NCBI GenBank assembly: GCA_029762535.1
Contig: JARVGK010000010.1
Location: forward strand, 4,602 to 68,601
Length of the DNA: 64,000 nucleotides
Source of the DNA: Thermoplasmatota archaeon
GTDB lineage: Archaea > Thermoplasmatota > Penumbrarchaeia > Penumbrarchaeales > Penumbrarchaeaceae
Direction: 5' to 3'
In this document: positions 3,803-23,200 of the stretch, one piece after another
How positions within the stretch are numbered: the first letter of the stretch is position 1
Layout of the letters: every line of letters starts with the position of its first letter
Notes under the pieces: model-generated
What the model was told of the DNA's origin: nothing
Seen by the model: the letters and a program-made list of their open reading frames with translations, nothing else
The model's database searches: none
Made by a program: the position numbers and the translations under genes

Positions 3803-4420
3803 ATGGCCCCGAAGAAGTACTACGTCGTGTGGATCGGGAGATCCCCCGGGATCTACGCTACCTGGAGCGAATGCCGGGAGCAGGTCCATAACTACAAGGA
3901 TGCCAGATACAAGGCCTTTCTGGGCCTTGAAGAGGCACGAGAGGCGTTCTCCGAAGGTTGGCAGAAACACTACCGACGGGGATCGAATGTCAAAAAGATG
4001 CCCTTGACGGGCAGCGGACCCGTTCCCGACAGCATCTCGGTGGATGCGGCCTGTTCCGGGAATCCTGGGCCTACCGAGTACAGAGGAGTGCATACTAAAA
4101 GCGGGGATCCCCTCTTCGAGGGGAGGTTGAGATTCGCGACGAACAACATCGGGGAGTTCCTCGCCATTGTAGAAGCGCTGAGGATCCTCAAAGGGAAGAG
4201 ATCGGATATGCCGATATATTCCGATTCGGGAACCGCCATAACATGGGTCCGGAAGAAAAGGTGCAACACCGCCCTGAGGGGATCCGCTTCGACTAAGGAG
4301 GCCTTCGAAAGGATCGAGGGGGCCGAGAGATGGCTCGAGGAGAACGACTACCCCAACCCGATCCTGAAATGGGACACCCGGCGCTGGGGGGAGATCCCCG
4401 CGGACTATGGGAGGAAATGA
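3803..4420 (+). CDS. rnhA: Ribonuclease HI with an N-terminal hybrid-binding (caulimovirus viroplasmin-like) domain.
   Basis: N-terminal YYVVWIGRSPGIYATWSECREQVHNYKDARYKAF matches the HBD/Cauli_VI domain. It is followed by an RNase H core (ISVDAACSGNPGP...EFLAIVEAL...SDSG). A GGTGA RBS-like motif lies just 5' of the ATG at 3803; the ORF track start at 3749 is probably too long. Confidence 0.75.
   Translation: MAPKKYYVVWIGRSPGIYATWSECREQVHNYKDARYKAFLGLEEAREAFSEGWQKHYRRGSNVKKMPLTGSGPVPDSISVDAACSGNPGPTEYRGVHTKSGDPLFEGRLRFATNNIGEFLAIVEALRILKGKRSDMPIYSDSGTAITWVRKKRCNTALRGSASTKEAFERIEGAERWLEENDYPNPILKWDTRRWGEIPADYGRK
4388..4419. repeat. Left copy of a 32-bp direct repeat GGGGAGATCCCCGCGGAYTATGGGAGGAAATG; it forms the last codons of rnhA.
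   Basis: 31/32 identical to 5904-5935. The two copies flank the ATPase gene. Confidence 0.85.
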
Positions 4421-4490
4421 TCGCATGTCGATCCATCCCCCCCTTCTATCCCAGCGGGATCTCTCCTTCGGATCATTCGTTATTCCTGTG

Positions 4491-4520
4491 GGAAAAATAA
4501 TATACCATATCGGTTATAAA
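4491..4520 (+). promoter_or_regulatory. AT-rich BRE/TATA-like element (aaaaataatata...ttataaa) 16-45 nt upstream of the ATPase ATG; fits a leaderless archaeal promoter.
   Basis: TTATAAA at 4514-4520 and AAAATAATATA at 4494-4504 in an otherwise GC-rich region, immediately 5' of the ATG at 4536. Confidence 0.4.
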
Positions 4521-4535
4521 CCATAATGGTGTAAT

Positions 4536-5900
4536 ATGTCGTTCTTCGACAGATCGGACGAATTGGAGATAATTGGAAAGGCCCTTAAACGCCCATATTG
4601 TTTCGTCGTAATTACTGGAAGAAGGCGTATCGGCAAGACCAGGCTCGTGCGGGAGGCCCTCGCCGGGACCGATCACATCGAGCTGTTCATCCCCAGGAAG
4701 AGGAGGAGCCAGGTCCTTGAACAGCTGAGGTCATCCATAGCAGAGCAGACCGGATTCTCCCCGGACTTTTCCGATCTCGGGACACTCCTGGAATATCTTT
4801 TCAGAAAGGAGAAAAGACCGGTCTTCATCGACGAGATCTCGAATGTACAAAAGGTGGATCCTGGATCGTTCTCCGACATACAGAGGATATACGACCGTTA
4901 CAAGGAGGAATGCGGAATACACCTCATAGTCGACGGATCGTATGTTGGCGTTATGAAGAGGATATTCCAGGACAGGAAGGAGCCACTCTTCGGCAGGGCG
5001 ACGGATGTCATACAGTTGAGGCCGCTGCCCATAAAGGATTCCATTGGAATGGCCATGGAGCAGGGTTTCGGTCCCGTCGATTCCCTCGAGGCCCGATCCA
5101 TCCTCGGGGGAGTACCTCGTTACCTCGAACTGATCCACGGATACAGGGACATGAGGGATCTCAAGGAGAGGGTATTCGATCAGGGTTCCATCTTTCCAAC
5201 CGAACCGGAGAACATTCTCATTCAGGAGTTCGGAGCATCCTGGGAGACGTATTTCTCCATACTCGAGGTGATAGCCGCAGGCGCGACCGGGCCCTCGGCG
5301 ATCGCCAACGAGCTCGATATGAACGCACAGATGGTGCCGAAGTACCTGAACAGGCTCATCGGGATCGGGATATTGATGAAGGAGAAGCCGCTATTCGGAA
5401 AGAAGAAACAGGTCCGATATTCTATATGCGACCCCTATCTTGATATCTGGTTCGGGGTTTACTATCCGAGGATAGAACTCTACAGGGAGGGGGTGTCCAG
5501 GGTTCCGCTGGAAACGATCGATTCTGCCATCGGCCGGGCCATGGAGCGAACGATAAGGGAGATCGTCTCATTAGGTGGGGTTGTGCCTTTTAATATCGAC
5601 GGGATCGGATCATGGTGGAATCGCTCAGGAGATGAGATAGATATCGTGGCCTTCAACAGGAAAGGGAGCCATATTGCCTTCGGGGAGGTGAAATGGGGAT
5701 CGCACATTGTAGGACCCGATGTCGTATCCAAGCTGATCGAGAGATCGGCGATGGTGCAATGGAATCAGAAGAAGAGGAGCGAAACGTTGTTCATCGTCTC
5801 CAGGTCCGGTTTCAACAAGAAAGCGATGGAATTGATGGAGCAACACGGTATAGCCGGCATGGATACGGCTCGATTGATGAGGATCGTGCTTAATCCGTAG
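4536..5900 (+). CDS. Archaeal ATPase family protein (AAA-like P-loop NTPase with a C-terminal DUF234-type domain).
   Basis: Walker A motif VVITGRRRIGKTRLV, a Walker B-like region VFIDEISNV, and a C-terminal region typical of DUF234-containing archaeal ATPases. The gene sits between the 32-bp direct repeats. Confidence 0.7.
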   Translation: MSFFDRSDELEIIGKALKRPYCFVVITGRRRIGKTRLVREALAGTDHIELFIPRKRRSQVLEQLRSSIAEQTGFSPDFSDLGTLLEYLFRKEKRPVFIDEISNVQKVDPGSFSDIQRIYDRYKEECGIHLIVDGSYVGVMKRIFQDRKEPLFGRATDVIQLRPLPIKDSIGMAMEQGFGPVDSLEARSILGGVPRYLELIHGYRDMRDLKERVFDQGSIFPTEPENILIQEFGASWETYFSILEVIAAGATGPSAIANELDMNAQMVPKYLNRLIGIGILMKEKPLFGKKKQVRYSICDPYLDIWFGVYYPRIELYREGVSRVPLETIDSAIGRAMERTIREIVSLGGVVPFNIDGIGSWWNRSGDEIDIVAFNRKGSHIAFGEVKWGSHIVGPDVVSKLIERSAMVQWNQKKRSETLFIVSRSGFNKKAMELMEQHGIAGMDTARLMRIVLNP

Positions 5901-7399: not shown

Positions 7400-10258
7400 T
7401 CATTCCTCGGCTTCCCATTCGGAGGATCCCTTAGATCTCCTAATGACGAACATTATAAGGACAAGGATAGCCAGGATGACCATCACCGCAGCGAGTATCA
7501 CGAAAGCTATCCATGGATCGCTGCTCTCTTTCTTGTCCGACACTCCCGGATCCGTCCCTTTCAGATACTCCTCCAGATTGGTGTATCCATCCCCGTCGGG
7601 ATCGAGACCTGCATCGTCGGGATCGGAATCGGATAACCCGTATCTCTCCTCCCAATCCATGGGGATCCCGTCGCCGTCGTGGTCCTTCGTTCTATCGATC
7701 CCCACAAGAATGGTCCAGTTCAACACCGTTATGCCACCCTCCCCGTCATCTGCGCTGAGGGTTATGAAATAGGAACCGGCCTCGTCGAAGATCATCGAGA
7801 ACCCCTCATCGGTCCTGGTGACCTGCGCTCCCTCGGCGGATATGGAGACCTCTACCTCATCCGAAGGGTCAGAAGCCTCATCTATCTTCACTAGAAGCGT
7901 CTGGTCCTCGAGCATGGTCCCATCGGAGTTTGGATAGACGAGAGACGCCCTGAGAGTCGGTTCGACGTTATAGGCGATCAACGTGAGGTTGGAGTAGGTC
8001 ATGCCTCCGTCATCATCCCTCACCGCTGCATGAACCGTATAGTTCCCATCGTTCGGGAGAACGAATGCATACGAAGAATTCTCCAATGTCAGGTTCGACC
8101 ACTCCGAGAACACACCATCCAATGACCATGATATCATCATCGGATCGTGAGGAGCATCGGTCGCTTCCACGCTGATGATGACAGTATCGCCCTCGTTCAC
8201 CTCGACCGCGCTCGCCTCGATCGACACCACGGGTGCCCTGTTGAGGACCGAAACGATCGCATTATATGAGACGGTCCTTCCGAACCCGTCATTTACCGTT
8301 ACGGAAACGTTGTATTCCCCGTCATCCATGAATGTGTGTTCGATAGATGAGGACGATGTGTTGATACCCGAACCGTCGATCATCCAGGAGAACTCATAAG
8401 TGTTGTCCGGGATATGGTCGAGTATGTTGGATGTGAACATCGCGCTCTCGTTCTCGAATATGGTTTCCGGGCCCGTGAAGTTAACTGTGAGCTCATCCTT
8501 GTAAAAGACCAATGTCACGAACTCCCCTGTTACATCATCGTCGGGGTCCGGGTCCTGTCCGGGCATCATGGTAACGGTCCCGTTCTCATAGGAGACAGTG
8601 ACGTTCTCGGCTTCATATCCCGTCATCATCCACCCTCCCGGTATTACTGCGCTGCCTATTGTTTCCTCGAACATATCATCGTATGTCATATTGAATACAA
8701 GGGAGCGTAATGCCGAGTCATCCAAGGTTCCGTTCAGCACATATCTACCGCCGACCCTCAACTCCATCGGGACCATGAGGTCCACAGGGCCCGTGAGGTT
8801 AATGAAATCGAAATATCCATCGACCCTGTCATAGTAAAGGCCGTCAAGGGTGATGTTCCCGGTGGTATTGAAGCCGAAAGGTGCCGATGCCATCTCATCG
8901 TCATCCTCCATGGCCATCGCGAGGAAATCCTCCAATTCCTGATCGTTGAGAACCTGATCACCATCCCCCATCATTAGGTCCATGAACAGCCTCATGTACC
9001 TGGTGGAGTTGACGTGAGTTTTCATCACACCATCCACTTCGAACGCCTCCCAGCCATCGAAGGATATGATGTTGGTGGCCGTGCTGTTCTTCGAATCCCT
9101 CAAAGAAATCTCGAGTTCCATGTCCTCATCAACGGTAATGGGTGCGAAATACGTCTCGTACTCCCAGCCATCGAACGGGTCCTCCCCGCCGATGATGAGA
9201 TGGCCCGGCACGTCGGACACGATCATGGAAAAGTGTCCCTTATCATCCGTCCTTAATGCGTTCTGGTCCGGGAAAACCTTCGATTGAATGAAGTTCACAG
9301 CGATGTCCTCGAGCGGATCCCCGGCTTGGTCCGTTAAGGCCCCCGACAGTTCATACTGCCTGTATCCAAGTGTGATATTGTACCAGAATACCCCCCCTTC
9401 CGGGATATCGACCCTGGAGAAGTGGAAATCATAGTCATCCGACATGGTGATGATCATATGCATCCCTTCCCAGAACTCGAACTCGTAATATCCAGCCTCA
9501 TCGACCATGGCCATGAGCTGGAAATCCAGGTACTGGTCGAATATTATGACGAGTATCTCCTCAAGCGCTGAGGCCCCGTCGGTGACGTATCCTTTGACCG
9601 TTGTCCTCATCTCCGGGATCATGGGGATCCCTATGTCGAGTTCATAGGGGCTCATCTCCTCCTCGAAGGATGAGTATTCCTCATGAACGATCAGTCCCCT
9701 GAAAAAAAGGCGGAAAGAGTAGAATGCCGGGAATATCTCAAGGGAGAACTCTCCCGATGCATCGGTCATGGCCTCGTATTCGTAATGGTCGGATCCTGAG
9801 AAAGAGGCGTATTCGAGAACGACCCTGACCCCCTGGGCGTCATCCCCGCCCTGGACGAAATGAACGTGTCCATTGATCTCCACGGTCTCGTTCGGGCGGT
9901 TGGACAAAGTGACGTTGTGAACGTTGGTCCCAACATCCAGTATCAGGCCCTTGCTCCGATAGAGCAGGTAGCCGTCCTTCACAACCTCGACGATGACGTG
10001 GCTCGTCATATCGAGGTAGAACGAGTAATGGCCGGTCCCGTTCGTGATCGTGCTGTTGAGGAATTCCATGTCGGTACTCATGACCCTTACAGAAGCTCCC
10101 TCAACAGGCGCTTCGGAGGCGTAAGTGATGTAACCTTCGATCCAGTATTGGGGTTTTCTTGTATATCCCTCCGCTTCCGAAGATGCGAAAAGGGGGAACA
10201 ACAAGGCCAAGGCGATCGCTATACCGATGGTTGATCTGAGGATAGAATTCCCATACAT
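7400..10258 (-). CDS. Giant surface protein with signal peptide, carboxypeptidase-regulatory-like/PKD beta-sandwich domains, one thrombospondin type-3-like module, a C-terminal TM anchor and a short tail ending EWEAEE.
   Basis: N-terminal hydrophobic signal [20 protein letters not shown]-like block ([11 protein letters not shown]...[10 protein letters not shown]). [47 protein letters not shown]-terminus [37 protein letters not shown]. Confidence 0.7.
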
Positions 10259-10385
10259 GGAGGGGAGCAGTTTTTCTACCTTTATTTATCTTTATTGCGG
10301 TCCTTTCTATTTAATAAAATTCATGGACGATCCCCGGATCGATCCATATCCTTTAGAATCGTGTATCCAACCCCTTATCCTCAGG

Positions 10386-13300
10386 TTACTCTTCCCATAC
10401 CTCGTTGGTCCTATCCGTTCTCTTGTTCCGATTAAATATAAGGATTATCATAGCTGCGATGATGATGATCAAGAGAATGATCGATGCGAGGGCAATAAAG
10501 GGCATCATACTGTGACCTTTATCATATGCCGAGATATCGAAGCGAATGGATCGGTTCACATGCTCGGAGGAGGCCTCAAAGATCAGAACATGGATCCCGG
10601 CCTCCCCCTGGGGGACCTCCACCTCGATGATGACCGATTCGGTCCCACCCGGCAGGATCTCGAGCCGCTCGACGCTCAGACCGCACCAGGAAGGGGGCAG
10701 GCCATTTATCTCCAGCTCCACGACGATGGGGATGTTGCCCTTATTCGTCACATTGACGATGAACTCGAACTTCTCCCCCGTTCTGACCCTGCTCTTGTTC
10801 TCCGAAGGGCTCAGATCAAAGTCGTATAGAGTGAGGACGGTCACATTCACGGATCTTGAGATCACCAGCTTCCCGTCGTTCATATCGACCTCGAACAAGA
10901 GCGTATCGACGACCCCCGGAGGGATCCCCTCCGGGATCCTGATTGATATGCCCATGGCAGCGCTCCTACTGGATCCTATCCAGCCCCTTTCACCGCTCAA
11001 TATCCTTATGGATAGGTCCACGGATGATGATGCGCTGAGGCGATAGTCGAACGGCATGTTCCCGGCGTTGATCAACTCGAGGTCCAACGTCATTTCCTTA
11101 CCGGGCGGACCGGAAACGATCATCGGATAGAGCAGGTCCGCTCTAAGAATTTCCAGGATATTCAGATCTATCGACAAGGAGGCCGAAGCGTTGTTCAACG
11201 ACATGGCCCTCAGAATGAACGCAACGGATGAGGGAGGCAGGGCCTCGTTCAAAGCTACGTTCAAGGTAGCTGTCCTCTCCTCGAACGGCGCCATACGAGA
11301 ACCGTTGAAGGATATACCGAACTCCCACTGACCAACGGGCTCGACCGTATCGAAGACCACATCGTCAATGATGTTGCCCGTGTTCCGCACCGATACGCTG
11401 ATCGTGATCGTGGAATACGGCTCGATCCCGACCTCCTCCTCGGGCCCTTTCAGAGATATACCGTGGATCGATCTCGCTATCAATGTCAGGTTGATCGTGT
11501 CCAGAAGCCCCTCTGACGTGAAGGCACCGAGGACAACGCTGCACCATTCTCCGGCGAGAGTCGTTGGCGGGGCGGTCATTTTGAACGATATGGAGGCCTC
11601 CTCACCATACTGTACCTGTGTGCTGTTGACGAAAGAATGGTCCCAGATCGTTCCTTGTACGGACAGGACCTCGATCGACGTATTCAACATCACATTGCCC
11701 GTGTTCCTCAACAGAACTGTGAAAGGGATCTCCTCCCCCGGATCGGCGTGAAGCGTCACGACCTCCGATATGAACTCGGCCCTGAGGACGTTCCCAACCA
11801 ATACCGCAGCCTCCGTTTCAGCTGATATATATGGATCCCTCAAGGAGAACGCAGTGATGATGAGGTCGTATGCATTTCCCCCTGAAGCGTTCTCGGGAAC
11901 TATGAAATGCAAGAGGGCCCATCTTTTCTCATTCGCGATCATCTTAGAGCCGTTGAACTCGATCGTGATGGGAGACTTCAAGGATCCGCATACGGCCTGG
12001 ATGCTGATATCATCGAGGTCGTTCCCGGTATTGGTGATGTTAACATCGATCAAAGTACGCTCGCCAGGGTCATAGGATGATCCCCGAACCGTCGCATCGA
12101 TGAGGATCCCTCTTACCGTCGATGCGATGGTTTCGACCTCGATCTCGGTGAATATCGAGGGATCGCCTTCCATCTCTAATCTTACCAGCAACACCATGAT
12201 GTCTCCGGATAGGGCATCATCGGGAACAATGACGCTCAGTGATAGATCCCTCTTGATGCCGGGTTCGATCCCTGTCCCGTCGAAGGAGGCGTTCCATACC
12301 CATGACGGATCGTCCGATGCGATGATGACATCGAGATCCGATTCTGAGCTTCCATGGAACAATACATCGATCAGATATCCGACGCTCTCTCCGGGATCGG
12401 CGTATCCGATCCGGTTCCCCCCCGGGACCTCTATTCTATCCGGGGGGGTCCAATGCTCGGACATCCCTATCAGGAACTGCCCGATCCCGGCCGCCCCCCA
12501 GTACCATCCGGGGCAGTATTCGGCGGTATCATCGATATCCTCCTTGTAATTCCATCTCCTGACCCCGGGAGAGATCTCCTCCGACATGTTCATGACCCAG
12601 TTCGCGGACCTTACGGCGTGGTCAAGATAGGTCTCGTTGCCGGCCATCTCATAAGATGTCATGAAGGCGTATCCTATGCCGGAATTGCCCATGAGAAGCC
12701 CGGTAATGTATTCGCTTCCTCCTATAAGGTGCGGCCATTTGAGCTCGTCCTCGTTCACCTCGACCCGCTGGTATATTATCCAATTCATTATCCTCTCGGC
12801 CGCATCAAGGTATTTCGGATCACTCGTTGCCTTATGGAGCGAGAACAGAACGATGGCATGGCTGGGATCCCCGTGGCAGAGGATATTGGTATGATCTATG
12901 CTCATCATCCCCTCCCCCATCATCGTCCCCTGACCTACGGTCCAATTGGCCCCGGCCATGGCATTCTCGAGGTATGTCGAGTTACCGGTAGCCTCCCACA
13001 TTCGAATGAAGAACTGGACGATCCCGATGGTGCCCCCGCACCAGGACCGGTCCGGGTCCGGATCCCCCTCCACTCTCACCCACGCCTTCTCCCCCGGACC
13101 CATGTCCATTCCCATCGAGATGAGCCATCCGGCGCCTCCAAGGGCGTAGTCGAGATAAGCCGTGTTTTGAGTGTCCGAGTGGATCTCCATAAGGACATGG
13201 GACAGCCCAGCCGTGCCGTGGTACCATCCCGTCATGTTGTGATCTATCGTCGAGAACGACTTCCATTTGTAACCCCCTGGCGCGGGCACGGCCTGATCAA

Positions 13301-13841
13301 CGAGCCAGTTGGCGCCTTTTACCGCATAGTCAAGATATGTGGAGTTCCCGGTGGAGCGATACAGCATCGAGAGGTATTCCATCGTCGAGCCTATGCCCCC
13401 TAAATAGTCGGGGTCGTATATGCCCCATCCCTCATATTTGGACCATCTGCATGAGTTCGGACCAACCCCCTCGGCAATGGATATGAGCCATCTGCCCGTT
13501 CCTTCGGCAAACTCCAGATATGTCCCGTTCCCGGTGGCATGATAGAGCTCCAGGAAGAACTTGCCCACACCGACCGCGCCCATGGACTGCTCTGTCATGA
13601 AACGATCGCTCTCGAGATCGGAATTGTACCACTTGTACTGCCCGGGAGCGGGCTCCATCGCGATCGACATCAGCCATCTGGCCGCGGATTCGGCATGGTT
13701 TAGGTATGGATTGTCGTAGGGTTCGAGAGCTGGCGCGTCCCTGGTCGGCTCGACCCATCCGGAAGGCACCTGGATATGGAGCGTGAAGATCAATGAAAGA
13801 ACAACAAGAGAGGTGGCCCATCTCACGTTCATTCCTCCCAT
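10386..13841 (-). CDS. Giant surface protein with signal peptide, an N-terminal LanC-like (lanthionine synthetase C-like, alpha/alpha-toroid) domain, multiple CARDB/NEW3-like beta-sandwich domains, a C-terminal TM anchor and a tail ending VWEE.
   Basis: About seven ~55-aa repeats with G-x-A/G-G and GN-x-TYL-x-x-A-x-x-x-x-W-L signatures. The LanC zinc-ligand triad is in order: HG (GWYHGTAGL), WC-x-G (SWCGGTIGIVQFF), CHG (ILCHGDPSHAI). Downstream there are NTGN-type beta-sandwich repeats. C-terminus FIALASIILLIIIIAAMIILIFNRNKRTDRTNEVWEE. The start may instead be Met4 (13832), giving an ATGA overlap with the upstream gene's stop. Confidence 0.65.
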   Translation of the reverse strand: MGGMNVRWATSLVVLSLIFTLHIQVPSGWVEPTRDAPALEPYDNPYLNHAESAARWLMSIAMEPAPGQYKWYNSDLESDRFMTEQSMGAVGVGKFFLELYHATGNGTYLEFAEGTGRWLISIAEGVGPNSCRWSKYEGWGIYDPDYLGGIGSTMEYLSMLYRSTGNSTYLDYAVKGANWLVDQAVPAPGGYKWKSFSTIDHNMTGWYHGTAGLSHVLMEIHSDTQNTAYLDYALGGAGWLISMGMDMGPGEKAWVRVEGDPDPDRSWCGGTIGIVQFFIRMWEATGNSTYLENAMAGANWTVGQGTMMGEGMMSIDHTNILCHGDPSHAIVLFSLHKATSDPKYLDAAERIMNWIIYQRVEVNEDELKWPHLIGGSEYITGLLMGNSGIGYAFMTSYEMAGNETYLDHAVRSANWVMNMSEEISPGVRRWNYKEDIDDTAEYCPGWYWGAAGIGQFLIGMSEHWTPPDRIEVPGGNRIGYADPGESVGYLIDVLFHGSSESDLDVIIASDDPSWVWNASFDGTGIEPGIKRDLSLSVIVPDDALSGDIMVLLVRLEMEGDPSIFTEIEVETIASTVRGILIDATVRGSSYDPGERTLIDVNITNTGNDLDDISIQAVCGSLKSPITIEFNGSKMIANEKRWALLHFIVPENASGGNAYDLIITAFSLRDPYISAETEAAVLVGNVLRAEFISEVVTLHADPGEEIPFTVLLRNTGNVMLNTSIEVLSVQGTIWDHSFVNSTQVQYGEEASISFKMTAPPTTLAGEWCSVVLGAFTSEGLLDTINLTLIARSIHGISLKGPEEEVGIEPYSTITISVSVRNTGNIIDDVVFDTVEPVGQWEFGISFNGSRMAPFEERTATLNVALNEALPPSSVAFILRAMSLNNASASLSIDLNILEILRADLLYPMIVSGPPGKEMTLDLELINAGNMPFDYRLSASSSVDLSIRILSGERGWIGSSRSAAMGISIRIPEGIPPGVVDTLLFEVDMNDGKLVISRSVNVTVLTLYDFDLSPSENKSRVRTGEKFEFIVNVTNKGNIPIVVELEINGLPPSWCGLSVERLEILPGGTESVIIEVEVPQGEAGIHVLIFEASSEHVNRSIRFDISAYDKGHSMMPFIALASIILLIIIIAAMIILIFNRNKRTDRTNEVWEE

Positions 13842-16800
13842 ATCGAGGTCTCCTGCCTCCGTTTAAGGACGAATGCGGCACCTGCGATGATCACAGCGAG
13901 CACGAGGATGATCGCTATGACCACCAGAACGGGCGATAGCCCCCTCTGGTTCGAGTCCCGTTCGACAACGTTGAGCTTCAGGAGGATCGTGCTGGTGGAG
14001 GACCCGTCCGATGCGCTGACCTGTATCGTATGAGGGCCGGGGGCGAGGTCCTGGGTCGGCACCGAGAGCGTCAGGTCCCTTGATGAGTAGGGGCCCATAT
14101 CTACCGGGGACGGAGGGTCCACCTCGCATTCGATCCCTGCGTATACCGAGGCGGATACAACGCCGTTCCCCGCATTCTCAAGGATCAGCCTGAATACGGC
14201 AATGGAGCCGCTCTTGACTTCCACATCGGTGTTATCGCAGGTCAATTCCAGATCGGAGACCCTCTCCGGGGACACCTTCATGGACAGGTATGTCGCCGGA
14301 CCGCCGTCCACAACGGACACCGCCCTCAGCATGACCGCCTCTTCGGACCCCAAGAGCATCGATCGCGGCAATTTGACCTGGAATATGTGCCATTTGGTTT
14401 CCCCGGGACCGATCCGGACCGTCGAGTTCGGGGACAGTATAACCAGAGCGCTCCCGGATGAGACATTGACGGAGATCTCGTCCAATCCGTTACCCGTGTT
14501 CACTATCTCCACCTCGACCTCGACCGTCGATCCGGGGAGCGCCGAGATGTTAGAGGGGAGGTGGCACTCGAATCCAGGCATCCGGTCCACGGTGATGTGT
14601 ATGCCGAGATCGGATCGGCTCGACGGATCCCCCGCGGATATGCAGCTGACGTTGATCTGCTCGGTATCCCCCTCGAGGGAATCAACAGGGACCGAGATGT
14701 TAAGGTGGAGCATCCAGCTCTCTCCCGGGAGGACGCTCGCGCCCTCCGTGAAAAGGACTGCCTCCCAACCCGATCGGTTCTTCAACACGAGTTCCAGTTC
14801 GTCGGGGGCGTTCCCGGTGTTGACCACGGGGATGGCAAAGGATAGCATCTCTCCGGGTTTGGCGAAGGCGCGCACCTCGTCGTGGACCACGGTCAGCGAA
14901 TGGAGAGCCCCGACGCTAATGCGGACCTCGAGCGGGTCCGAGGCGTTCCCTGAGGATGATGCCATCAATGAGACGAGGTCCGTTTCGCCGAACGCAGCAT
15001 CGTCCGGGACAAGTAAGGTCACCGCTCCCGCCCTTTTCTCTGCCGGCACCATGCCCGTCCCGTTGAAATCGATATCACCGCTCCAGTTCACGAATGCGGC
15101 ATCCAGTGTGATGTCGTCCATGCCGTTGCCCGAGTTCTCCACGGTGATCATTATTTCCACGATATCGCCGGGTAGGGCATTCCGGTGAACATCATCCTCA
15201 AGTATCCTCACGCCGAAAAGGTGCCCCACTTCTGTCTCTATCGCGACCGTGACGCTCTTTTCGGGATCGCTCGCGGAGGTGAAGGACAAGAGAGCGGTGA
15301 ACGTCTCGTGATGCATGGAACCGTTCGGCGTCCTCACGATGACCTCAACCGCTCTGCTCCCTCCCGGTGGGACATCGGACCCGTCAAGGTCAAGGCTCAG
15401 ATCCCATCCTTGGGGAGGCGTGGCGTGTTCGAGGACTATGTCATCCACGATATCGCCGGTGTTGAACACATCGAATGAGTAAGAGGCGCTCTCCCCGGGA
15501 AGGGCGATCCCTTTGAGTTCCGATGCGGAGGATCCCACGCCAAAGGTAGGGTTCCGCGTCAATCTGATGGTCAGATTGTAATATGTCACATCGTACATCG
15601 ATACCTCAGGGAGGCTGGCCTGGATGTGGAGCCTGGTCTCGCCGTCGAAGCGCTCCAGCACGTGAAAGACCCCGAGCGAGGGCTGCTCCTCAAAAACCAA
15701 CTCAACGCTGAGCGGATCGGTGTAATCGTGAGGCAGGACGATGGGCTCGTAGAACAGGTCCTCTCCATGATGGTACATATCCCAGTTGGGGAACCACGTG
15801 TCCACGGAAGGCGGCCGATGGTAGCTGATGTTGAGCTCCATGGTCGCCCCATCGACCCTTTCGAACTCTACCCTTGTCAGGTTCAGCCCAGGGTCATGAT
15901 CGTTCCTGAAAGGGTCGTGCATAGGATCCCCATAATAGACCCTATTGGATTTACCCCCAAGCATGGCGGCCGCGGAAGGCCATTCCACGGGATCGAAATC
16001 CCCGGAGGGCAGTATGTCCGGAAGGTAGGCGCTCTCCCCCTCATTGTAAAGGCGTAGGTTCGGGCTGTTTCCCATGAACCCCATCACGACCTGGTCCAGG
16101 GATCTCTTGTATATGTCGCCCATGGGCTCATGGTATCTAAGAGCGTTCCACTGGTCGAAATAGCTGTTGTATCCGTGGTTCGCCCCGATGGGTGCAAAAT
16201 ATCCCGTGGCGTTGTCACCCAAAATCCTGTTGAAGAAAGCGAAATCATCTGACATCTCGTAGAATCTCACAACCCCTTCCGTGTTGCCGAAGGTCGCTGC
16301 GATATCCCCCTCGACCAGGGCCCTCTTGGGCACTCCTGAATGGCATGTCCCCGCGAACACGACCGCGGGGTAGAGATCTATCCCGCTCAGGTTCTCGGGT
16401 GTCAATCCCATCCGGGCATGGGCGGGATCCTCGATCTTCGCAGGGTCGTAGGTCCATACGGGCGGGTCAGGGTCGAGGTTCCCTCCTTTGAATAGCCATG
16501 TCATATGTGGATCCCCGTCCCCGCTGATGGTAACCATCCTCGATCCTTCGAGGTCCGCCGCGTTATCGAGGAAGAAGTCCCTTCCGGAACCAGTGTCGTT
16601 GACCTCCATATACAGGTGGACCTCCGAGTCCCTCACGATCTTGTGGAAGCTGTTCGAGCCGGTCACCCTCCAGTTCAGGGAGCTTGCGGAATATCCGGAC
16701 ACTTTCATAGGGAGCAGATGAGCCTCTTCCTCCTCCGCCCTGATGATGTTCTCGACGAAGGAGAGGGCGTCAGCGGGCGTCGCCCCGGTTATGTATCCCC

Positions 16801-17188
16801 ATGAGAAGTCAGGGAAGGGATCGTCGTCCAGCGTTGTCGAGTTCATGACGAAGGACCTGTGGAAGTTGATGTCCATCTCCAGGGGTCTGACGACCACGGC
16901 GACGTATCTGGCATCCATCTCCTTCAGGCCCTCCATGAGAGATGGGAGATCGTCCACGGAGAACTCGATCACGGTCCCGCCCCTGAATAGCGCCAATGCC
17001 TCGGCGGCATCCCTGTAGGGATCCGTCGAGTTCGCCGTTGTCGCAATGACGTACGTCGATGGCACATCCAACACATTAGGCGTCCCTTCGACGTTACCGC
17101 CTGAGATAAATGAATAAGGAAAAGAGGGGCCTGCTATGAGGAGAAGGACGACGATCGAGATCATACCAGGAACGTTTAGAGAATGCAT
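13829..17188 (-). CDS. Giant surface protein with signal peptide, an N-terminal clan-CD peptidase C25 (gingipain)-like domain, at least five CARDB-like domains, a TM anchor and a tail ending SIWEE.
   Basis: The N-terminal region (YVIATTANSTDPYRDAAEALALFRGGTVIEFSVDDL ... SGDGDPH ... AVVFAGTCHSG) resembles the C25 propeptide/catalytic region, with a His-then-Cys order. CARDB-like repeats: FDVFNTGDIVDDIVLE, VENSGNGMDDITLD, VVNTGNAPDELELV, IVNTGNGLDEISVN, ILENAGNGVVSASV. C-terminus VLVVIAIILVLAVIIAGAAFVLKRRQETSIWEE. Confidence 0.6.
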   Translation of the reverse strand: MHSLNVPGMISIVVLLLIAGPSFPYSFISGGNVEGTPNVLDVPSTYVIATTANSTDPYRDAAEALALFRGGTVIEFSVDDLPSLMEGLKEMDARYVAVVVRPLEMDINFHRSFVMNSTTLDDDPFPDFSWGYITGATPADALSFVENIIRAEEEEAHLLPMKVSGYSASSLNWRVTGSNSFHKIVRDSEVHLYMEVNDTGSGRDFFLDNAADLEGSRMVTISGDGDPHMTWLFKGGNLDPDPPVWTYDPAKIEDPAHARMGLTPENLSGIDLYPAVVFAGTCHSGVPKRALVEGDIAATFGNTEGVVRFYEMSDDFAFFNRILGDNATGYFAPIGANHGYNSYFDQWNALRYHEPMGDIYKRSLDQVVMGFMGNSPNLRLYNEGESAYLPDILPSGDFDPVEWPSAAAMLGGKSNRVYYGDPMHDPFRNDHDPGLNLTRVEFERVDGATMELNISYHRPPSVDTWFPNWDMYHHGEDLFYEPIVLPHDYTDPLSVELVFEEQPSLGVFHVLERFDGETRLHIQASLPEVSMYDVTYYNLTIRLTRNPTFGVGSSASELKGIALPGESASYSFDVFNTGDIVDDIVLEHATPPQGWDLSLDLDGSDVPPGGSRAVEVIVRTPNGSMHHETFTALLSFTSASDPEKSVTVAIETEVGHLFGVRILEDDVHRNALPGDIVEIMITVENSGNGMDDITLDAAFVNWSGDIDFNGTGMVPAEKRAGAVTLLVPDDAAFGETDLVSLMASSSGNASDPLEVRISVGALHSLTVVHDEVRAFAKPGEMLSFAIPVVNTGNAPDELELVLKNRSGWEAVLFTEGASVLPGESWMLHLNISVPVDSLEGDTEQINVSCISAGDPSSRSDLGIHITVDRMPGFECHLPSNISALPGSTVEVEVEIVNTGNGLDEISVNVSSGSALVILSPNSTVRIGPGETKWHIFQVKLPRSMLLGSEEAVMLRAVSVVDGGPATYLSMKVSPERVSDLELTCDNTDVEVKSGSIAVFRLILENAGNGVVSASVYAGIECEVDPPSPVDMGPYSSRDLTLSVPTQDLAPGPHTIQVSASDGSSTSTILLKLNVVERDSNQRGLSPVLVVIAIILVLAVIIAGAAFVLKRRQETSIWEE

Positions 17189-17414
17189 CGAATGAGAACA
17201 ACACGTTAGAGATACTAATATTATTCTCGATAGATATCGCTGGGACGGACTGGTACGGATGTGAGATATGGGGTCGATTCAGCCCATACTCGGCCATTGT
17301 ATGGATACCTGACCTCTTGCCGATCCTGCTCCGATCGATCGAATCTTGCTATGCTATGGATCTGAGAACGAAGGAGGTTGAAAAACCTTTAGGCAGGCAC
17401 GACCTATTGTCGTT

Positions 17415-18920
17415 TCACCTGTTCCTCATCATCGAGTAATACCCGATCACGTCACCGTCATATCCAAGCCTGTTGAGGATCTCCCCCTTCAGCTCGAGCG
17501 ACCTCTTGAAGAAAATGAAGTTATCAAGGATCCAACCCGCTGCTGACTCCGTCAGGCCTCCCTGAAGCCATCTTTTTAGGAAGAATCCTTTCGATGTCAG
17601 ATAATATTTGTAGTACTTCTCGGCCTCCTTCCTCTTCCCTGGGGTGGAATACAGCATCATGGTGAGATTGATGTAGCTCTCGGGATAGTCCGGGTTCCTG
17701 TTTATCGCCTCCAGAAAGGCCTTGATCGCTTCAGGGTACTTCCCTTGAGAGGCGAGTACCTTCCCTCTCTCGTTGAAGGCGATCTCGTATTCCCCCGGTT
17801 CAAAGATGATCTCCCTGAGGGACCTTCCACGATCCATTTTAAAGAGGATGTTGTCAGAACCGCTGGACATCCCGAACCCGTTCACTGGATTCAATTCGAT
17901 GGCACGATCCACTTGTTGCAATGCATAGTGATCCTTACCGCTCCTGTGCATATCATCCGCCCTGATCAACGCTCTGCTGACCGCTTTGAGTTCGTGCTGC
18001 ATCTTCAGGTCCAGCGATCTCAAGGATACGATCGACCCCATGCCAGCAATGAGCAATAGAATTCCTGCCGCAGCGGAGATCTCGAACACCCTTATCGGAC
18101 CTACAATTCGAAGAGTGCACAAAGATACCGCTGAAACCAAGACCCCTGAGGACCAGATAAGAGAGGGCATCGATCTCCTCAAGGGGAACGCCGAAGAGCT
18201 CATATTTATCGCCATGATCGAGAAGGTCATCACCATCCCGATCAATAATAGGGTCTCATTTCGGAGCATCCAGTGATCGACGATGTCGGGTTTATCCAAC
18301 ATTATACGTGTGAGCCCGAAAAAAGAAGGCATGAATCCCAAAACGGGCAGAAAGAGACGATCTATCCGCACCTTCTTTATACCCAGGGCCGAAGCTATGA
18401 CCGCGGCCAAGCCCGATATGAGAAAGATTATGGCGATGGTCGAACTATCGGCCCGCGGCTTCGCGTTCAAAACATAGGATAGCGATGACGATACGACAAG
18501 CATGCCCATGATGAAGGAGAGAGTGAGCATAGGCTCCTTTCCAAAAGAAAGGGCCCTCGTCTGATAGATGATCGCTCCCGAACCCAGTAGGGAGAGGAAT
18601 AGCATAGGGAACACCATCCATGATGACCTCTCCATCGTCTCCGAATAGTGATCTCCCATTATCGGACCCGACGCATGGATGAAAAGAGATATCGCCATAC
18701 AGAATGTGGCGATCAGGAAGATCGTGTTGATGCTCGTCAGGTCATCCCTGGGAAATTTCCCCACACACCCCTCGCAAACAGGTCCGGAAGGGCTACTTGA
18801 ACCGCACATAAGGCATCCTCCTCCCTCCTCAAAGGGGGGATCCTTACGCGATGTCCTGCCGCCCTCCATTGTACGCTCCTTCAAGAGGTTCAATGGACCA
18901 CCACCCTTCGATGACCCCAC
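17415..18920 (-). CDS. Polytopic membrane protein with an N-terminal Cys4 zinc ribbon, ~8 hydrophobic segments and C-terminal TPR repeats.
   Basis: CLMCGSSSPSGPVCEGCVG near the N-terminus. About eight hydrophobic stretches counted by eye. The C-terminal ~180 aa carry TPR-like repeats (ALQQVDRAIELNP..., AIKAFLEAINRNPDYPESYINLTMMLY..., EAEKYYKYYL). Confidence 0.55.
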   Translation of the reverse strand: MGSSKGGGPLNLLKERTMEGGRTSRKDPPFEEGGGCLMCGSSSPSGPVCEGCVGKFPRDDLTSINTIFLIATFCMAISLFIHASGPIMGDHYSETMERSSWMVFPMLFLSLLGSGAIIYQTRALSFGKEPMLTLSFIMGMLVVSSSLSYVLNAKPRADSSTIAIIFLISGLAAVIASALGIKKVRIDRLFLPVLGFMPSFFGLTRIMLDKPDIVDHWMLRNETLLLIGMVMTFSIMAINMSSSAFPLRRSMPSLIWSSGVLVSAVSLCTLRIVGPIRVFEISAAAGILLLIAGMGSIVSLRSLDLKMQHELKAVSRALIRADDMHRSGKDHYALQQVDRAIELNPVNGFGMSSGSDNILFKMDRGRSLREIIFEPGEYEIAFNERGKVLASQGKYPEAIKAFLEAINRNPDYPESYINLTMMLYSTPGKRKEAEKYYKYYLTSKGFFLKRWLQGGLTESAAGWILDNFIFFKRSLELKGEILNRLGYDGDVIGYYSMMRNR

Positions 18921-20269
18921 CGCAGCTCGATCCCCCTGCGAGTAACGTACATGAAATATAGATATGCAGTGTGGAATCCATTGATCAGATCGTAAACGGT
19001 CTTAAGTGGCAGATACTGGACGAGGCCCCTAGTCTCTTTATACTGGACGAGGATCAAGACCCTCATAAGGAAATAGAACGCTACGAGAATGACGCTCCGC
19101 AATGCGATGAACTCGAGGAGCGAGTGATAGGACAAACCCGTAAAAAGCAACGTTATGGTAAGTAAGAACGATACAAGGAAAATAAGGGCGGACAATGTCG
19201 TGGAGATCCATGTGAAATAAGTGTACAACGCCCAGGGATTTCGCCAGAGATGCCATTTGTTCTCCCTCCACGCCTGGAACTGACCGAAAATCCATCTCCT
19301 TCTCTGATTGAACCATCCGGTCCATGAGACCGGCGCTTCGGTATACGACCTGGCACCCGGTGCGGCCCTCGTCGTATATCCGGTGGACAGGATCGACATG
19401 GTCAGGTCGCAATCCTCAACGACCGTTCTATCCAAAGGCGGATACATACGAGCAAGGTCCGTTCTCATGCCGAATATCGGGCCAGGGGCTATAAGGACGG
19501 ACCCATCCTCGCTCTGGCACGTCCTTATCACATGCTGGGTGATTATGTATTCGAGCTGCTGAAGCTTCGTTAGGGTTCCGGCAAAGGTGTTCCTTATCGT
19601 CACGAAACCGCCAACAATCCCGGCGTCCGGGTATGCCCTGAAGGTCTCTACTATCTCGGAGACGGCGTTCTTGTCCATCGTGCTGTCCCCGTCGGTCATA
19701 AGTACGATAGGCCCCGTGGCTTTTTGGATCCCGTAGGTGAGGGCCGAGGCCTTGCCCCCGTTCTCTTTATGATATATCTTAAGGTCCCTGCGTCCCGATC
19801 CGCCCTTGAATATACTGGATACAGACCATGTATTGTCCCTGGACCCATCGTCGATCACCAATACCTCTATCTCTCCCCGATAGGTCTGATCGTAACAGTT
19901 CAGTATCGCCCTGCCCACGTTGAGCCCTTCGTTGTAGCAGGGAATGATGATTGATACCTTTGGATATCTCGATCGGGCGAAGGGATCCGGTCCTGAACCC
20001 GTTCCTGTCCTCTTTCGGAACTTCCCGGAAAACGCCTTTGAAATGGTCGAACGTACCGCCAGATATGTGAACGGGAAGACGTTCGCTAGAATGAAGAACG
20101 TGTAGTATAGGTCCAAAATGAGATAGAGGGGGCCCCCTTGATGGATCTCCTCGGCGTCAAGGACCAATTTTCCGTTGCCTATGGAAAGACCCAGATGTGC
20201 GGGGATAGCGATAAGGGGCAGTGTCAATACCATTGCAAGCATTAGGCATACAACGATGGATATCCTCAT
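18890..20269 (-). CDS. Membrane-integrated processive family-2 glycosyltransferase (cellulose/chitin/PNAG-synthase-like).
   Basis: GT2 signatures: IIIPCYNEG, VLVIDDGSRDNT, MTDGDSTMD, and the processivity motif Q-x-x-R-W (NQRRRWIFGQ). TM segments flank the catalytic domain. The start is probably Met9 at 20269 (MRISIVV...), which gives an ATGA overlap with the stop of the upstream GHL10-like gene. The ORF-track start is 20293. Confidence 0.75.
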   Translation of the reverse strand: MRISIVVCLMLAMVLTLPLIAIPAHLGLSIGNGKLVLDAEEIHQGGPLYLILDLYYTFFILANVFPFTYLAVRSTISKAFSGKFRKRTGTGSGPDPFARSRYPKVSIIIPCYNEGLNVGRAILNCYDQTYRGEIEVLVIDDGSRDNTWSVSSIFKGGSGRRDLKIYHKENGGKASALTYGIQKATGPIVLMTDGDSTMDKNAVSEIVETFRAYPDAGIVGGFVTIRNTFAGTLTKLQQLEYIITQHVIRTCQSEDGSVLIAPGPIFGMRTDLARMYPPLDRTVVEDCDLTMSILSTGYTTRAAPGARSYTEAPVSWTGWFNQRRRWIFGQFQAWRENKWHLWRNPWALYTYFTWISTTLSALIFLVSFLLTITLLFTGLSYHSLLEFIALRSVILVAFYFLMRVLILVQYKETRGLVQYLPLKTVYDLINGFHTAYLYFMYVTRRGIELRWGHRRVVVH

Positions 20270-23200
20270 GGAAGGACCACCCCGTCCGACCATTCGATAT
20301 CCTCCTCGAGTAACTCCTCGAACTCCACTTCTTCGTCCCAGATGATCTCCTCTTCCAGCTTCGGGGCCAGCTCATCGGGCGTGTCGATCATGTCCATGAC
20401 GGGATCGTCCACATCTTCCGGGGCGGATATCATGGACACGTATTCGTCCAGGTCCTCGTCCATCTCCATAACATCCTCGTAGAGAGAGCCGTGTATCGTT
20501 CGATGCGAACTGCCATCGTTCACGCGAGGGACGCTCATCGAAGGGTATCTCGACATCAAAGGAAGGGGTCCGCCGCCCATGTTACTGGAGAGGATCCTGA
20601 GCCTACTGCCCATATCCGCAGTCCCGGATGGGTACAGATCACCACATGTATCGATGCAGAATTCATCATCTTCTGCGTCGGCAGGGTTCTTGGGCCCTCT
20701 CCTATATCTTATGATCAGGATCGCGATCGATGCTGCCGTGACAAGGAATGACATTACCAAAAGGGAGAATATGGAGGCCAGTAAGAGGGACGAGGCGGTC
20801 TGTACCTCCTCGATAGAGGTCCGGTTGGCATCATCGGGCGGTGCGATTATTACGACCTGGGTCACCGTAACGTTCTCTATCGGCGGAAGGAATACATCCA
20901 CTTTGGAGAGGTCCGTGAGATCCCTTGCCAATCCGGTGTTGAGGTCCGTCGAAACGGTCGCATGCGTCTCCGCGTAGGAGAAAATGCCGTGATCGTCGCT
21001 TACCCAAAGACCGATCCGATAATGACCCGGATCAAGGGTGAGCGAGATCGATGGAAGGTTCGAGATGTTCACACCATCCAGGGACCATGTCGTTCCCATC
21101 ACCCATCCGTCCGCATCGAACGAACCAGAGGATGAGAGTTCTAAGGATCCCCCACGATAACAATCGATATTACCCGTGATCACGGGGATAGGGGCCATGT
21201 TGCTCGATGATATCTCAGCGGAGAAGCCCCCGACATGCCCAGCCCTATCCACGGCCCTAACTTTTATACTGATGGTGCGTCCGGGGTCCCTTCTCATCCA
21301 GGTCCAGTTCCGATCGGTCGTTCCCGTCATTTCCCAATACGGACCTCTGAGGGACCATACCTCGTAATGGTCTATGCCGGAACCGGGGAGGTCCATGGAC
21401 CGCTTCCAACTTATGTTGTATTCGAGGTTGGTATTATTCCTCACCGATATCATGGTTTGAGATGGGGCGGTCGGGGCATTGAGGTCCACCAATACTGGAA
21501 CGCTATCCTCTTCTGTGCTCAGACCCGCGTTGCTCTCAACGGTTAGCTTCAATGTGTATCGGCATCCCTCGGTCAGTGACCCCTGGTAGGTAAAAGATGT
21601 GCCGTTGACCATAATATTTTTGAAGACCACGCCTCTGTTTCCGTTACCCGCATCGTATAACAGTGTCGCGAGGGAACCCTTGATCCCCGAAACCGGAACG
21701 AAGGTCTCCTTCCATCTCCATGTGATTTGTTCCTGAGTGATGATGGAGGATCCCGCATCTGGCGTGGATATCCTTGGATTGGACCTGTCAAGGCACAGTT
21801 CGACCCGCCCGAACTCGCTTCGCGAACCGAACTCATCCACCGCTCTAACCTCGATCAAGTGTTCTCCTTCAACGAGTCCCTCCATCGTAAGGACTGTCGA
21901 ATCTGTGACGGATATATCCCCCCCGTTCAACCTCCATTCGTAGAACGAGATCCCCGCCAGACCCTCGATCGGATCCCAGATGATATCGACCGGATCCGAG
22001 GAGGTCCAACCTTCAGGTGCACCATACGGCTGCGGAGTTGATGGAGGCGGTATATCGCTGTGATATCGAAGGTCCTCGACCGTCCTGTTATTCTGTGTGG
22101 TGAACCGGAGGAAGAATGACATGTCGTGATCGAGCACCACGATCTTCAGCAGCACCCTGTTGATGCCATGCTTCAAACTCACCATTGTGGTGTTCTGGTC
22201 CGGTCCGACATCCCGTTCTTCATCGATGACAAGTGCGACCTCTCCGTTGATCCACACTTTGATCGCATCCGAGCTCCCTATCCTCATTTGGACATCCATA
22301 TCACGAGGGGATATGACGAACATATGGGAATACGCGACCGAATAAGATGTGTGACCGTACACAAGGTCCAGGTCGATGAGGTCCCTGTCCATGGTGGCGT
22401 CGGTCCACGGCCTTCCTCCGGTTATCGTTCCCGCTCGGGGCACTATTTCCGCCTCGTTCTCGAAGAACGTCCTTTCGAGAAGGCCCTTGGAATGACCTGT
22501 AAAGAACGTTCCTGCGGAAAGCCATGTCCTGACGCTGTAAGGCATCCATGAAAGGTGTATGGACCCAATGGTTATGTTCGATGCATCTTCGAACCTGGGG
22601 ACCACCCGGATGTATCTTATGTTCCCCAACCATTCGGGATGATCGTCGAGATGGATCGAAACTATGCCCCACCTGGCCTCCTTCATGACCTCTGTACGGA
22701 CCATCATCGGCTCCGAAAAACGCGTATGATCGTTGGACCAGTAGACATCGATGAAACAACTCTCATCATCTATGGCCGCGTCGATCTCGATAACGTTGAT
22801 ATCCTTCGCATTGATGCCCAATAGCGGCGACATAAGCCCGGCTTCCTTGGAATTCGCTATCGTCCATCTACCGCCTCGGGGGTAATGATGGCCCGAATCG
22901 GTAAGCCTCCAACCTTCCCTGTCTTGGTCATGCTCGAAATCCCATTTCAGATCGGTCACTGCCGTGGTCTGGTTCTTGAGCGGACAACTGGCATATTCCT
23001 CAAAGGGGTCTCCGACGAGGGCCTGACCATAGGACGGATAGCTCCTGAGGAACTTGTAAGAGAAGAGACATACGCCCAATGCGTTGCTGGACAGTGCGTA
23101 GTTGACCTGCGCGTTCATGGTCTCGATCCCGACGGTCTCGTTCGGGACCGAGCCATGGGCGGTGTTCCCAGGCACATATACGTAAGTGCCAGCAACGACC

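Follow-up and report, generated by a model that had tools for sequence, protein, structure and literature searches.

Surface proteins P1, P2 and P3

The window analyzed here is a 64-kb stretch of a metagenome-assembled genome (MAG) of an uncultured archaeon, Candidatus Thermoplasmatota archaeon (GCA_029762535.1, contig JARVGK010000010.1), and positions are counted from its first nucleotide. The window contains three consecutive minus-strand genes encoding large surface proteins, P1 (7400-10258, 952 amino acids [aa]), P2 (10386-13841, 1151 aa), and P3 (13829-17188, 1119 aa), whose C-terminal tails carry a tryptophan (Trp) next to acidic residues. This Trp-acidic motif is the subject of the present analysis, together with a neighboring membrane protein with tetratricopeptide repeats (TPRs), named TPR-TM (17415-18920, minus strand), that had been put forward as its receptor in a preliminary description of the locus. 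P1, P2, and P3 are the sole long open reading frames (ORFs) across 7400-17188 of the minus strand. At the N terminus of each is a hydrophobic segment resembling a signal peptide. As that description had it, each has one C-terminal transmembrane (TM) helix, after which comes a basic cluster. Each of the three proteins also has 18 to 23 N-x-S/T sequons, and they are predicted to be N-glycosylatable type I surface proteins.

Pfam and NCBIfam matches agree with the domain labels proposed earlier, namely, PKD/TSP3 for P1, LanC-like for P2, and a CARDB-type stalk for P3. P1, a putative adhesin-like protein with 23 sequons, contains CarboxypepD_reg, PKD, and TSP3-like domains, the TSP3-like stretch being assigned to MtsD, and it has a distant homolog, P0050, with a PGF-CTERM-like end. 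The N-terminal domain of P2 is of the (alpha/alpha)6 type and matches LANC_like (PF05147) at 73 bits, against a gathering cutoff of 23.2. It also partly matches LanM, LanL, and the GH127 catalytic domain, with GH127/GH88-like similarity. Lanthipeptide synthesis by P2 is disfavored because its LanC-like domain is predicted to be extracellular. The C-terminal part of P2, an immunoglobulin (Ig)/CARDB-like stalk, consists of Ig-like "choice-of-anchor T" repeats, and P3 matches the same model at 81 bits against a cutoff of 70.

P3 is 100% identical to QCI82_04565. Its N-terminal domain (540 aa; 15569-17188, minus strand) has no Pfam match even at an E value of ≤10, PF01364 included, and aligns with the true C25 peptidase of the window by BLASTP with an E value of 0.06 only. 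An AlphaFold2 (AF2) model built from 42 homologs has a predicted local distance difference test (pLDDT) score of 91.3, and the top five PDB structures found with it by Foldseek are the gingipains Kgp and RgpB (E values of 2e-7 to 3e-5; TM-scores of 0.37 to 0.48). The earlier label "C25-like" is thus appropriate at the level of the fold, gingipain-like clan CD, and not at the level of the sequence profile. Cys282 is invariant across the 42 sequences. His228 is kept in the archaeal and Bacteroidota groups and replaced in the most distant homologs, and the histidine of the Bacteroidota "GH(N)G" motif is Gly or Asp at that position in archaeal P3-type proteins, so that from this alignment the catalytic histidine cannot be assigned with confidence. 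P3-type domains with approximately 45% identity occur in many Bacteroidota proteins that have a sorting tail of the type IX secretion system (T9SS).

The three ectodomains had been described as unrelated, which applies to P1 and not wholly to P2 and P3. The last ~500 aa of P2 and P3 form one collinear alignment that runs over the stalk, the TM helix, and the tail with 20% identity (E value of 5e-17). On the basis of this alignment, the anchors and tails of P2 and P3 share descent, and P1 is the only independent case among the three.

The genes of P2 and P3 are also linked by their arrangement. The stop codon of P3 and an ATG of P2 form the overlap ATGA (13832-13829) noted previously; the other candidate starts of P2 are ATG 13841, which gives the longest ORF, and GTG 13826. 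An overlap of the P3 and P2 genes is seen here and at three other loci (L002, L091, and L010), and at a further one (L009) they overlap or abut. In addition, P0043 and P0047 are fusions of a LanC-like domain with a P3-type domain. Because the genes overlap or abut across loci and the domains occur fused, it is likely that P3 and P2 act jointly on the cell surface as an old functional pair. The analysis thus yields, as a by-product, a conserved pair of gingipain-fold and LanC-like surface proteins that is a single fused protein in other organisms. Upstream of two distant P3 orthologs are genes encoding large FG-GAP/Ig surface-type proteins (L009, 2-2782; L010, 606-3917), the C-terminal parts of which match the MarR, HTH_20, and HTH_24 winged-helix domains, and this suggests that they span the membrane and have a DNA-binding domain in the cytoplasm.

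Trp-acidic tails in the window

The tail of P1 (7403-7441, minus strand) follows a TM helix at 7442-7513 and contains the core EWEAEE (7403-7420). The tail of P2, NRNKRTDRTNEVWEE (10389-10433, minus strand), follows a TM helix at 10434-10499, and that of P3, KRRQETSIWEE (13832-13864, minus strand), follows a TM helix at 13865-13930. The tails run 7 to 10 residues past the basic cluster and end in SEWEAEE, EVWEE, and SIWEE, respectively. A common WEE terminus, as originally proposed, is therefore found in P2 and P3, while P1 ends in WEAEE, and on sequence grounds the tag is best defined as a Trp with acidic residues on its flanks, located at the C terminus of the cytoplasmic tail or close to it.

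The same motif occurs in a GHL10 hydrolase-like type I surface protein encoded two genes upstream (20266-24138, minus strand), which has a 144-aa acidic cytoplasmic tail with two Trp-acidic motifs, IIWDEE (20329-20346) and DIEWSD (20284-20301), both overlooked previously. The corresponding tail in another locus (L001) is poorly conserved in general, and both Trp positions are aligned (IIWD/EDWD and EDIEWSD/EDIDWTD). The statement that the other anchored proteins of the window lack the ending consequently needs qualification: several do lack a Trp-acidic motif, among them a chitinase-like GH18 surface protein that contains PKD repeats (24128-26923, minus strand) and has no Trp in its tail, but GHL10 carries it, and two others have aromatic-acidic ends. 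These two are the true Peptidase_C25 surface protein (55937-59755, minus strand), which ends in VEAYEID, and a DUF7948/fn3/SBBP surface protein with a 118-aa acidic tail (36023-40657, plus strand), which ends in GFYNEEQ. Neither end contains Trp, and both may represent a less strict form of the tag. A 437-aa protein without Pfam matches (29199-30512, plus strand), with a signal-like N terminus and a C-terminal TM helix, ends in TRLRRRW, in which Trp is the last residue and acids are absent.

The end of P3 also has a possible role at the nucleotide level. Its last codons, ATA TGG GAG GAA TGA, contain a Shine-Dalgarno-like GGGAGG site 7 nucleotides (nt) before GTG 13826 and directly ahead of ATG 13832, and the P3/P2 overlap is conserved, so the WEE codons (TGG GAG GAA) might be constrained as a ribosome-binding site of P2. 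Only P3 is eligible for such a constraint: a spacer of 127 nt comes after P2, which has the codons TGG GAA GAG, and a convergent gene comes after P1, and the constraint is refuted as a general explanation. Even among P3 orthologs, P0008 has the motif 14 residues before the stop codon, and the locus of P0012 has no downstream P2 gene, yet the protein ends in NIWDPE. We consider this explanation of the motif to be very improbable.

Conservation of the motif in related proteins

P3 orthologs were drawn from a protein database of 5.8 billion clusters. Orthologs ranging from 35% to 56% identity keep a Trp among acidic residues, although their tails are mutually unalignable. P0008 (56% identity) has the tail RSKRDVWDEPIEDGFDPEAEE with the motif DVWDE, P0012 (46%) ends in RRKGKNIWDPE, and P0009 and P0010 (47% to 48%) have EEEYEDWGG...SGSWGEGAE. 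In the ortholog from the Thermoplasmatota MAG PL23a_bin.128 (L006; 35% identity), a 130-aa acidic linker follows the membrane helix and has the tip DPQDDDWEED. The P2 ortholog of GCA_964563055.1 (L002), the MAG that also encodes P0010, ends in MDYEDWGDNDE.

At least three other anchored proteins of related Thermoplasmatota, unrelated to these, also bear the element. One is a 111-aa TM anchor protein of L002 (1332-1667), which ends in RRREDVDWEE; its gene overlaps as ATGA the stop codon of an anchorless 1202-aa CarboxypepD_reg protein (1664-5272), and the arrangement may reflect either a split anchor or a frameshift left uncorrected. Another is a 571-aa anchored protein of L006 with DDEHMEWDEEE, in which the motif is not at the free C terminus. 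The motif is likewise internal in P0008 and in GHL10 of the window (14 and 7 residues from the end, respectively).

The tails of P2 and P3 resemble each other within a genome, with EVWEE/SIWEE in the window and YEDWGDN/YEDWGGD in L002 (P2/P3 order). Recent gene conversion is ruled out as the cause of this likeness by the different synonymous codons (TGG GAA GAG versus TGG GAG GAA). Since the P2/P3 duplication is older than the genomes compared and the synonymous codons differ, the likeness points to selection. The preliminary description took the tails for a shared cytoplasmic tag, and the retention of the motif in orthologs with unalignable tails supports a common feature on the cytoplasmic side that is under selection.

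In the Thermoplasmatota loci, the motif is present in the last 30 aa of 8 of 23 C-anchored proteins versus 2 of 46 other proteins, counts that include orthologs and paralogs. The control set of 617 ORFs comes from 769 kb of unrelated metagenome loci (80 loci) and serves for composition only. These loci were obtained by a metagenome-contig scan with the GT2 glycosyltransferase pair, in which the generic motif VSIIIPCY dominated and no close relatives were found; a genome-contig scan with P3 orthologs gave three loci only, one of them from Bacteroidota. Among the controls, the motif was found in 0 of 36 anchored and 9 of 581 other proteins, the anchored class being contaminated with GT2 homologs that have W[GS]TR ends. 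Not a single control ORF among the 617 has a W[DE][DE] terminus; a similar frequency of WEE ends in unrelated cytoplasmic proteins had been raised as a potential refutation. The measure "Trp in the last six residues" (11 of 27, versus 56 of 617 for all controls and 8 of 36 for the flawed control-anchored class) shows enrichment over all controls but no clear one over the anchored class and was dropped as a statistic. The share of Trp is 3.5% among tail residues and 1.6% in the proteome as a whole, and in most tails a Trp is located 2 to 5 residues from the C terminus. The Trp-acidic motif is therefore enriched on anchored tails and is retained in orthologs and across families, and the similarity of the tails is unlikely to be a product of chance.

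Several points weigh against a function of the motif, in addition to the anchored neighbors without it and the potential ribosome-binding site in P3. In two more distant P3 orthologs (33% to 37% identity), the acidic surroundings are missing, P0013 being without any Trp and P0014 ending in GGWGQ. No close ortholog of P1 was found by the search for one, so the conservation of the P1 tail has no orthologs to draw on. In the long, very acidic tails, Trp residues with acidic neighbors are about as frequent as expected from composition. Finally, the related sequence sampled, approximately 120 kb, contains many orthologs and paralogs, by which the enrichment statistics are inflated, as the counts are not independent. 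Because the long-tail cases come close to compositional expectation, the argument leans on the short tails, on the conservation of position, and on the recurrence across families.

These points could be taken together to mean that the tails have no specific function and reflect the common descent of P2 and P3, an acidic proteome, and a chance Trp in P1. The stalk, anchor, and tail of P2 and P3 are indeed homologous, the proteome is acidic (Asp plus Glu, 13.6%; median isoelectric point [pI], 5.4), long acidic tails bring Trp and acids together by composition, and the motif is missing from some orthologs and neighbors. However, the P2 and P3 stalks have diverged to 20% identity, yet both proteins end in [IV]WEE, and in L002 both tails have changed in parallel with differing codons. 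The motif is also kept in orthologous tails that cannot be aligned, even at the tip of a 130-aa linker, it recurs across unrelated families, and W[DE][DE] ends are absent from the 617 control ORFs. A tail without specific function is thus an unlikely explanation.

Another possibility is that the tail is an element of the membrane interface or of topology that has no protein partner, the Trp, the basic cluster, and the acidic cap folding back on the membrane. Trp favors membrane interfaces, and the short tails of P1 to P3 are near net neutral (+0, +0, and -1), with the Trp 7 to 12 residues past the helix. In contrast, the element is 25 to 150 residues from the membrane in the L006 P3 ortholog, in the GHL10 proteins, and in the L002 P2 and P3 orthologs, and a terminal recognition peptide fits this distal position at the end of a linker better than an interfacial anchor does. 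An interfacial role is accordingly judged improbable.

The interpretation we favor, with a probability of about 0.55, is that the Trp-acidic motif is a lineage-restricted functional docking motif on the cytoplasmic tails of type I surface proteins, with a putative partner inside the cell. P3 and P2 would form a pair with paralogous stalks, anchors, and tails, and P1 would be an unrelated protein bearing the same type of tail. The short linear motif on their tails is specific to the lineage and consists of a Trp with Asp or Glu on its flanks, usually 2 to 5 residues from the C terminus; it is also present on GHL10 of the adjacent exopolysaccharide operon and on other anchored proteins of related genomes. 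As a docking peptide, it may insert the Trp into a pocket while the acids contact a basic surface, and a putative cytoplasmic or membrane-associated partner may cluster, retain, or position the tagged surface proteins. As the motif is short and easily tested with peptides, it is a possible bait for such a partner in uncultured Thermoplasmatota.

TPR-TM and its probable polysaccharide operon

TPR-TM, for which TTG 18893 is the likely start, has an N-terminal zinc ribbon (CxxC-x9-CxxC, conserved; 18765-18815), eight hydrophobic segments, and a 200-aa C-terminal soluble domain (residues 300 to 501) with a TPR match at residues 381 to 441. The earlier account of a zinc-ribbon protein with about eight TM helices is thus correct, and its "TPR array" amounts to approximately two canonical repeats (17592-17786). 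An AF2 model also has eight long helices (pLDDT of 42, from a two-sequence alignment, and unusable for a groove or fold search). The best PDB matches of the TPRs are the TPRs of OGT, and kinesin light chain (KLC) is absent among the 60 best. Because of the cytoplasmic ribbon, the eight helices, and the Lys/Arg-rich flanks, TPR-TM is likely to have an N-in/C-in topology with a cytoplasmic TPR domain. Hydropathy and the positive-inside rule consequently place the TPRs on the same side of the membrane as the tails, as had been anticipated. Residues 300 to 501 have a pI of 9.2 (9.3 in the homolog), compared with 4.05 to 4.7 for all eight ectodomains and 4.9 to 6.6 for cytoplasmic enzymes.

The gene of TPR-TM is the last of four overlapping minus-strand ORFs (17415-26923), in the order GH18, GHL10, GT2, and TPR-TM, with GH18 first. 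GT2 (18890-20293) is a PgaC/NodC-like processive family 2 glycosyltransferase with the motifs DGD, VED (VVEDCD), and QRRRW (NQRRRW), and it matches PgaC_IcaA with an E value of 1e-37, below the equivalog cutoff, and NodC with an E value of 4e-27. The stop codon of GT2 and the start codon of TPR-TM overlap as TTGA both in the window and in L001, the locus of the sole TPR-TM homolog (53% identity), where the order GHL10-GT2-TPR is kept. Downstream of the TPR gene in L001 are an opposite-strand RRM gene and unrelated genes, with no P1, P2, or P3 homolog in the 2.1 kb covered. In a word-indexed search of the 5.8 billion clusters, this homolog was the only relative of TPR-TM besides generic TPR proteins. 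When 1.84 billion representatives were searched exhaustively by phmmer with the membrane domain, no relative came from outside its own 50% cluster, and the domain has no Pfam match at an E value of ≤10. The intergenic region between TPR-TM and P3 (17189-17414, minus strand) has a run of five T residues approximately 30 nt after the TPR-TM stop codon and a AATAATATTA box approximately 30 nt before the P3 ATG. AT-rich TATA-like boxes precede the start codons of both P3 and P1 by approximately 30 nt. These boxes and the T run suggest three transcription units, GH18-GHL10-GT2-TPR, P3-P2, and P1.

In a typical synthase-dependent exopolysaccharide system, the synthase is accompanied by a co-polymerase in the membrane, a scaffold with TPRs, and a hydrolase (PMC8892547). 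Because the TTGA coupling and the synteny are kept in L001 and the GT2 motifs are present, TPR-TM is most likely an accessory subunit, of the co-polymerase or scaffold type, of a synthase-dependent polysaccharide module. The region 17415-26923 looks like an archaeal module of this kind, with a predicted chitin-like or poly-N-acetylglucosamine (PNAG)-like product. It resembles the Pga, Bcs, Alg, and Pel systems (PMC8892547) in its processive GT2, accessory TPR membrane subunit, hydrolase genes, and conserved operon. In those systems the TPR scaffold is extracytoplasmic, whereas the TPR domain of TPR-TM is predicted to be cytoplasmic. Also unlike them, TPR-TM has an N-terminal zinc ribbon and an eight-TM orphan domain, and the setting is a single-membrane archaeon with no evident cyclic di-GMP module. 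TPR-TM was also considered as a sorting enzyme of the exosortase, rhombosortase, or CPBP type, which is ruled out by a membrane part without a conserved Cys, His, or Ser-His signature. A second by-product of the analysis is therefore the definition of an archaeal synthase-dependent polysaccharide module composed of GH18, GHL10, GT2, and an orphan zinc-ribbon/eight-TM/TPR subunit.

The preliminary description had proposed that the cytoplasmic TPR domain of TPR-TM is the dedicated receptor of the P1, P2, and P3 C termini, by a carboxylate clamp or a KLC-like groove. The predicted location of the TPRs and tails on one side of the membrane and the basic character of the TPR domain within an acidic proteome are consistent with this, as are the TPR grooves of KLC, which bind W-acidic and C-terminal Y-acidic peptides (PMC6214655). 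Furthermore, GHL10, its operon partner, has a Trp-acidic tail in both genomes with TPR-TM. The genetic evidence is against the proposal, as TPR-TM is coupled to GT2 instead of P3 in a conserved arrangement, is set apart from P3 by the T run and the TATA-like boxes, and has a sole homolog with no P1, P2, or P3 homolog in the 2.1 kb covered downstream. Nor does the expected co-occurrence hold, since TPR-TM is an orphan in both databases searched, and three loci from other Thermoplasmatota MAGs or metagenomes (L002, L004, and L006) encode Trp-acidic tails but have no gene of this kind within 10 kb; the database includes proteins of at least one such MAG (P0010 of GCA_964563055.1), yet it contains one TPR-TM homolog only. 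Of the structural points, the number of canonical TPRs is approximately two, and a register check gives N5/K9, N6, and then L2/L6 where the third repeat of a clamp needs Lys or Arg. The motif is internal in P0008, in GHL10 of the window, and in the L006 571-aa protein, and the AF2 model of TPR-TM is too poor for inspection of a groove. A dedicated receptor role is therefore unlikely. TPR-TM cannot be the general receptor of Trp-acidic tails, because it is too rare while such tails occur in loci without the gene; by analogy with KLC, the GHL10 tail is a plausible ligand of its basic TPR domain, and perhaps so are the P1, P2, and P3 tails in this genome.

A more far-reaching variant, to which we assign a low likelihood, is that Trp-acidic tails constitute a cytoplasmic address code of archaeal type I surface proteins read by basic helical-repeat domains, TPR-TM being the one that tethers GHL10 and P3, P2, and P1 to the polysaccharide synthase. 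The eukaryotic equivalent of such a code, hitherto unrecognized in prokaryotes, would be the cargo-adaptor motifs, and the code would imply a membrane-spanning surface-remodeling complex.

Elsewhere in the window, two adjacent minus-strand genes (48894-50516 and 50552-52342) encode 540-aa and 596-aa proteins with N-terminal hydrophobic segments, no Pfam matches, and the similar ends TASGHYTALIGPYVVIPA and VTSVEGSQLAAVFGG, and these may be paralogous secreted proteins. Scans of the whole window for tRNAs and Rfam families gave no matches.

Comparison with known C-terminal motifs and sorting signals

A close parallel to the proposed docking motif is found in the cargo of KLC, in which Trp or Tyr flanked by Asp or Glu occurs in disordered cytoplasmic tails, including those of single-pass membrane proteins (PMC6214655). 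Recognition by KLC is partly electrostatic, through a basic helical-repeat groove, and Y-acidic motifs are located at the extreme C terminus (PMC6214655). KLC has six TPRs, whereas TPR-TM has approximately two with generic TPR similarity only, in an archaeal host without kinesin, and this KLC-type candidate receptor is missing from most genomes with the Trp-acidic motif. The EEVD-COOH peptides of Hsp70 and Hsp90, bound by the TPR clamps of Hop, CHIP, and PP5, are similar in that here, too, the acidic peptide at the C terminus is predicted to share its compartment with a TPR domain. They differ in that the conserved element of the archaeal tails is the Trp instead of the terminal carboxylate, the clamp residues are only partly mimicked, and the motif is sometimes internal.

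Acidic aromatic docking peptides are also known from protein-protein hubs, such as the C terminus of SSB (...DDDIPF-COOH) and the acidic region of the WASP family with its conserved Trp. Like the tails described here, these are acidic disordered tips with a single conserved aromatic residue. SSB and WASP tips are on soluble proteins with known partners, whereas the tails of P1, P2, and P3 belong to membrane-anchored surface proteins and their partner is putative.

With regard to surface protein sorting, the tails had been judged not to be a PGF-CTERM/archaeosortase signal, and the present analysis agrees. The sequences before the TM helix (SSDPW, HSMMPF, and QRGLSP in P1, P2, and P3, respectively) have nothing in common, and none of the NCBIfam CTERM models reaches its cutoff on the three anchors, the best being GPS-CTERM (18.2 versus 28) and Loki-CTERM (10.3 versus 19.9). 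No archaeosortase, exosortase, or rhombosortase family member was found among the scanned proteins of the window, which is only part of the genome. The Bacteroidota homologs of the P3 domain are anchored through T9SS tails, and P0050 is anchored through its PGF-CTERM-like end; such swapping of anchors among ectodomain relatives fits the "choice-of-anchor" behavior of the stalk. No literature on Trp-acidic or acidic cytoplasmic tails of archaeal proteins was found, and the motif has apparently not been described so far.

The known C-terminal signals of prokaryotic surface proteins stop at the basic cluster, and it is on the outer face of the membrane that they are read. If the favored interpretation is correct, some archaea organize surface proteins from inside through short linear motifs, a principle documented mainly in eukaryotes. 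The tripartite signals PGF-CTERM, PEP-CTERM, LPXTG, GlyGly-CTERM, and MYXO-CTERM resemble the ends of P1, P2, and P3 in combining a TM helix and a basic cluster with varied ectodomains. In these signals, which act with archaeosortase, exosortase, or sortase, the signature is located outside the helix and the protein ends at the basic cluster, whereas P1, P2, and P3 conserve the part beyond the cluster, on the cytoplasmic side. The novelty of the tails is thus a C-terminal membrane anchor that is extended by a cytoplasmic short linear motif.

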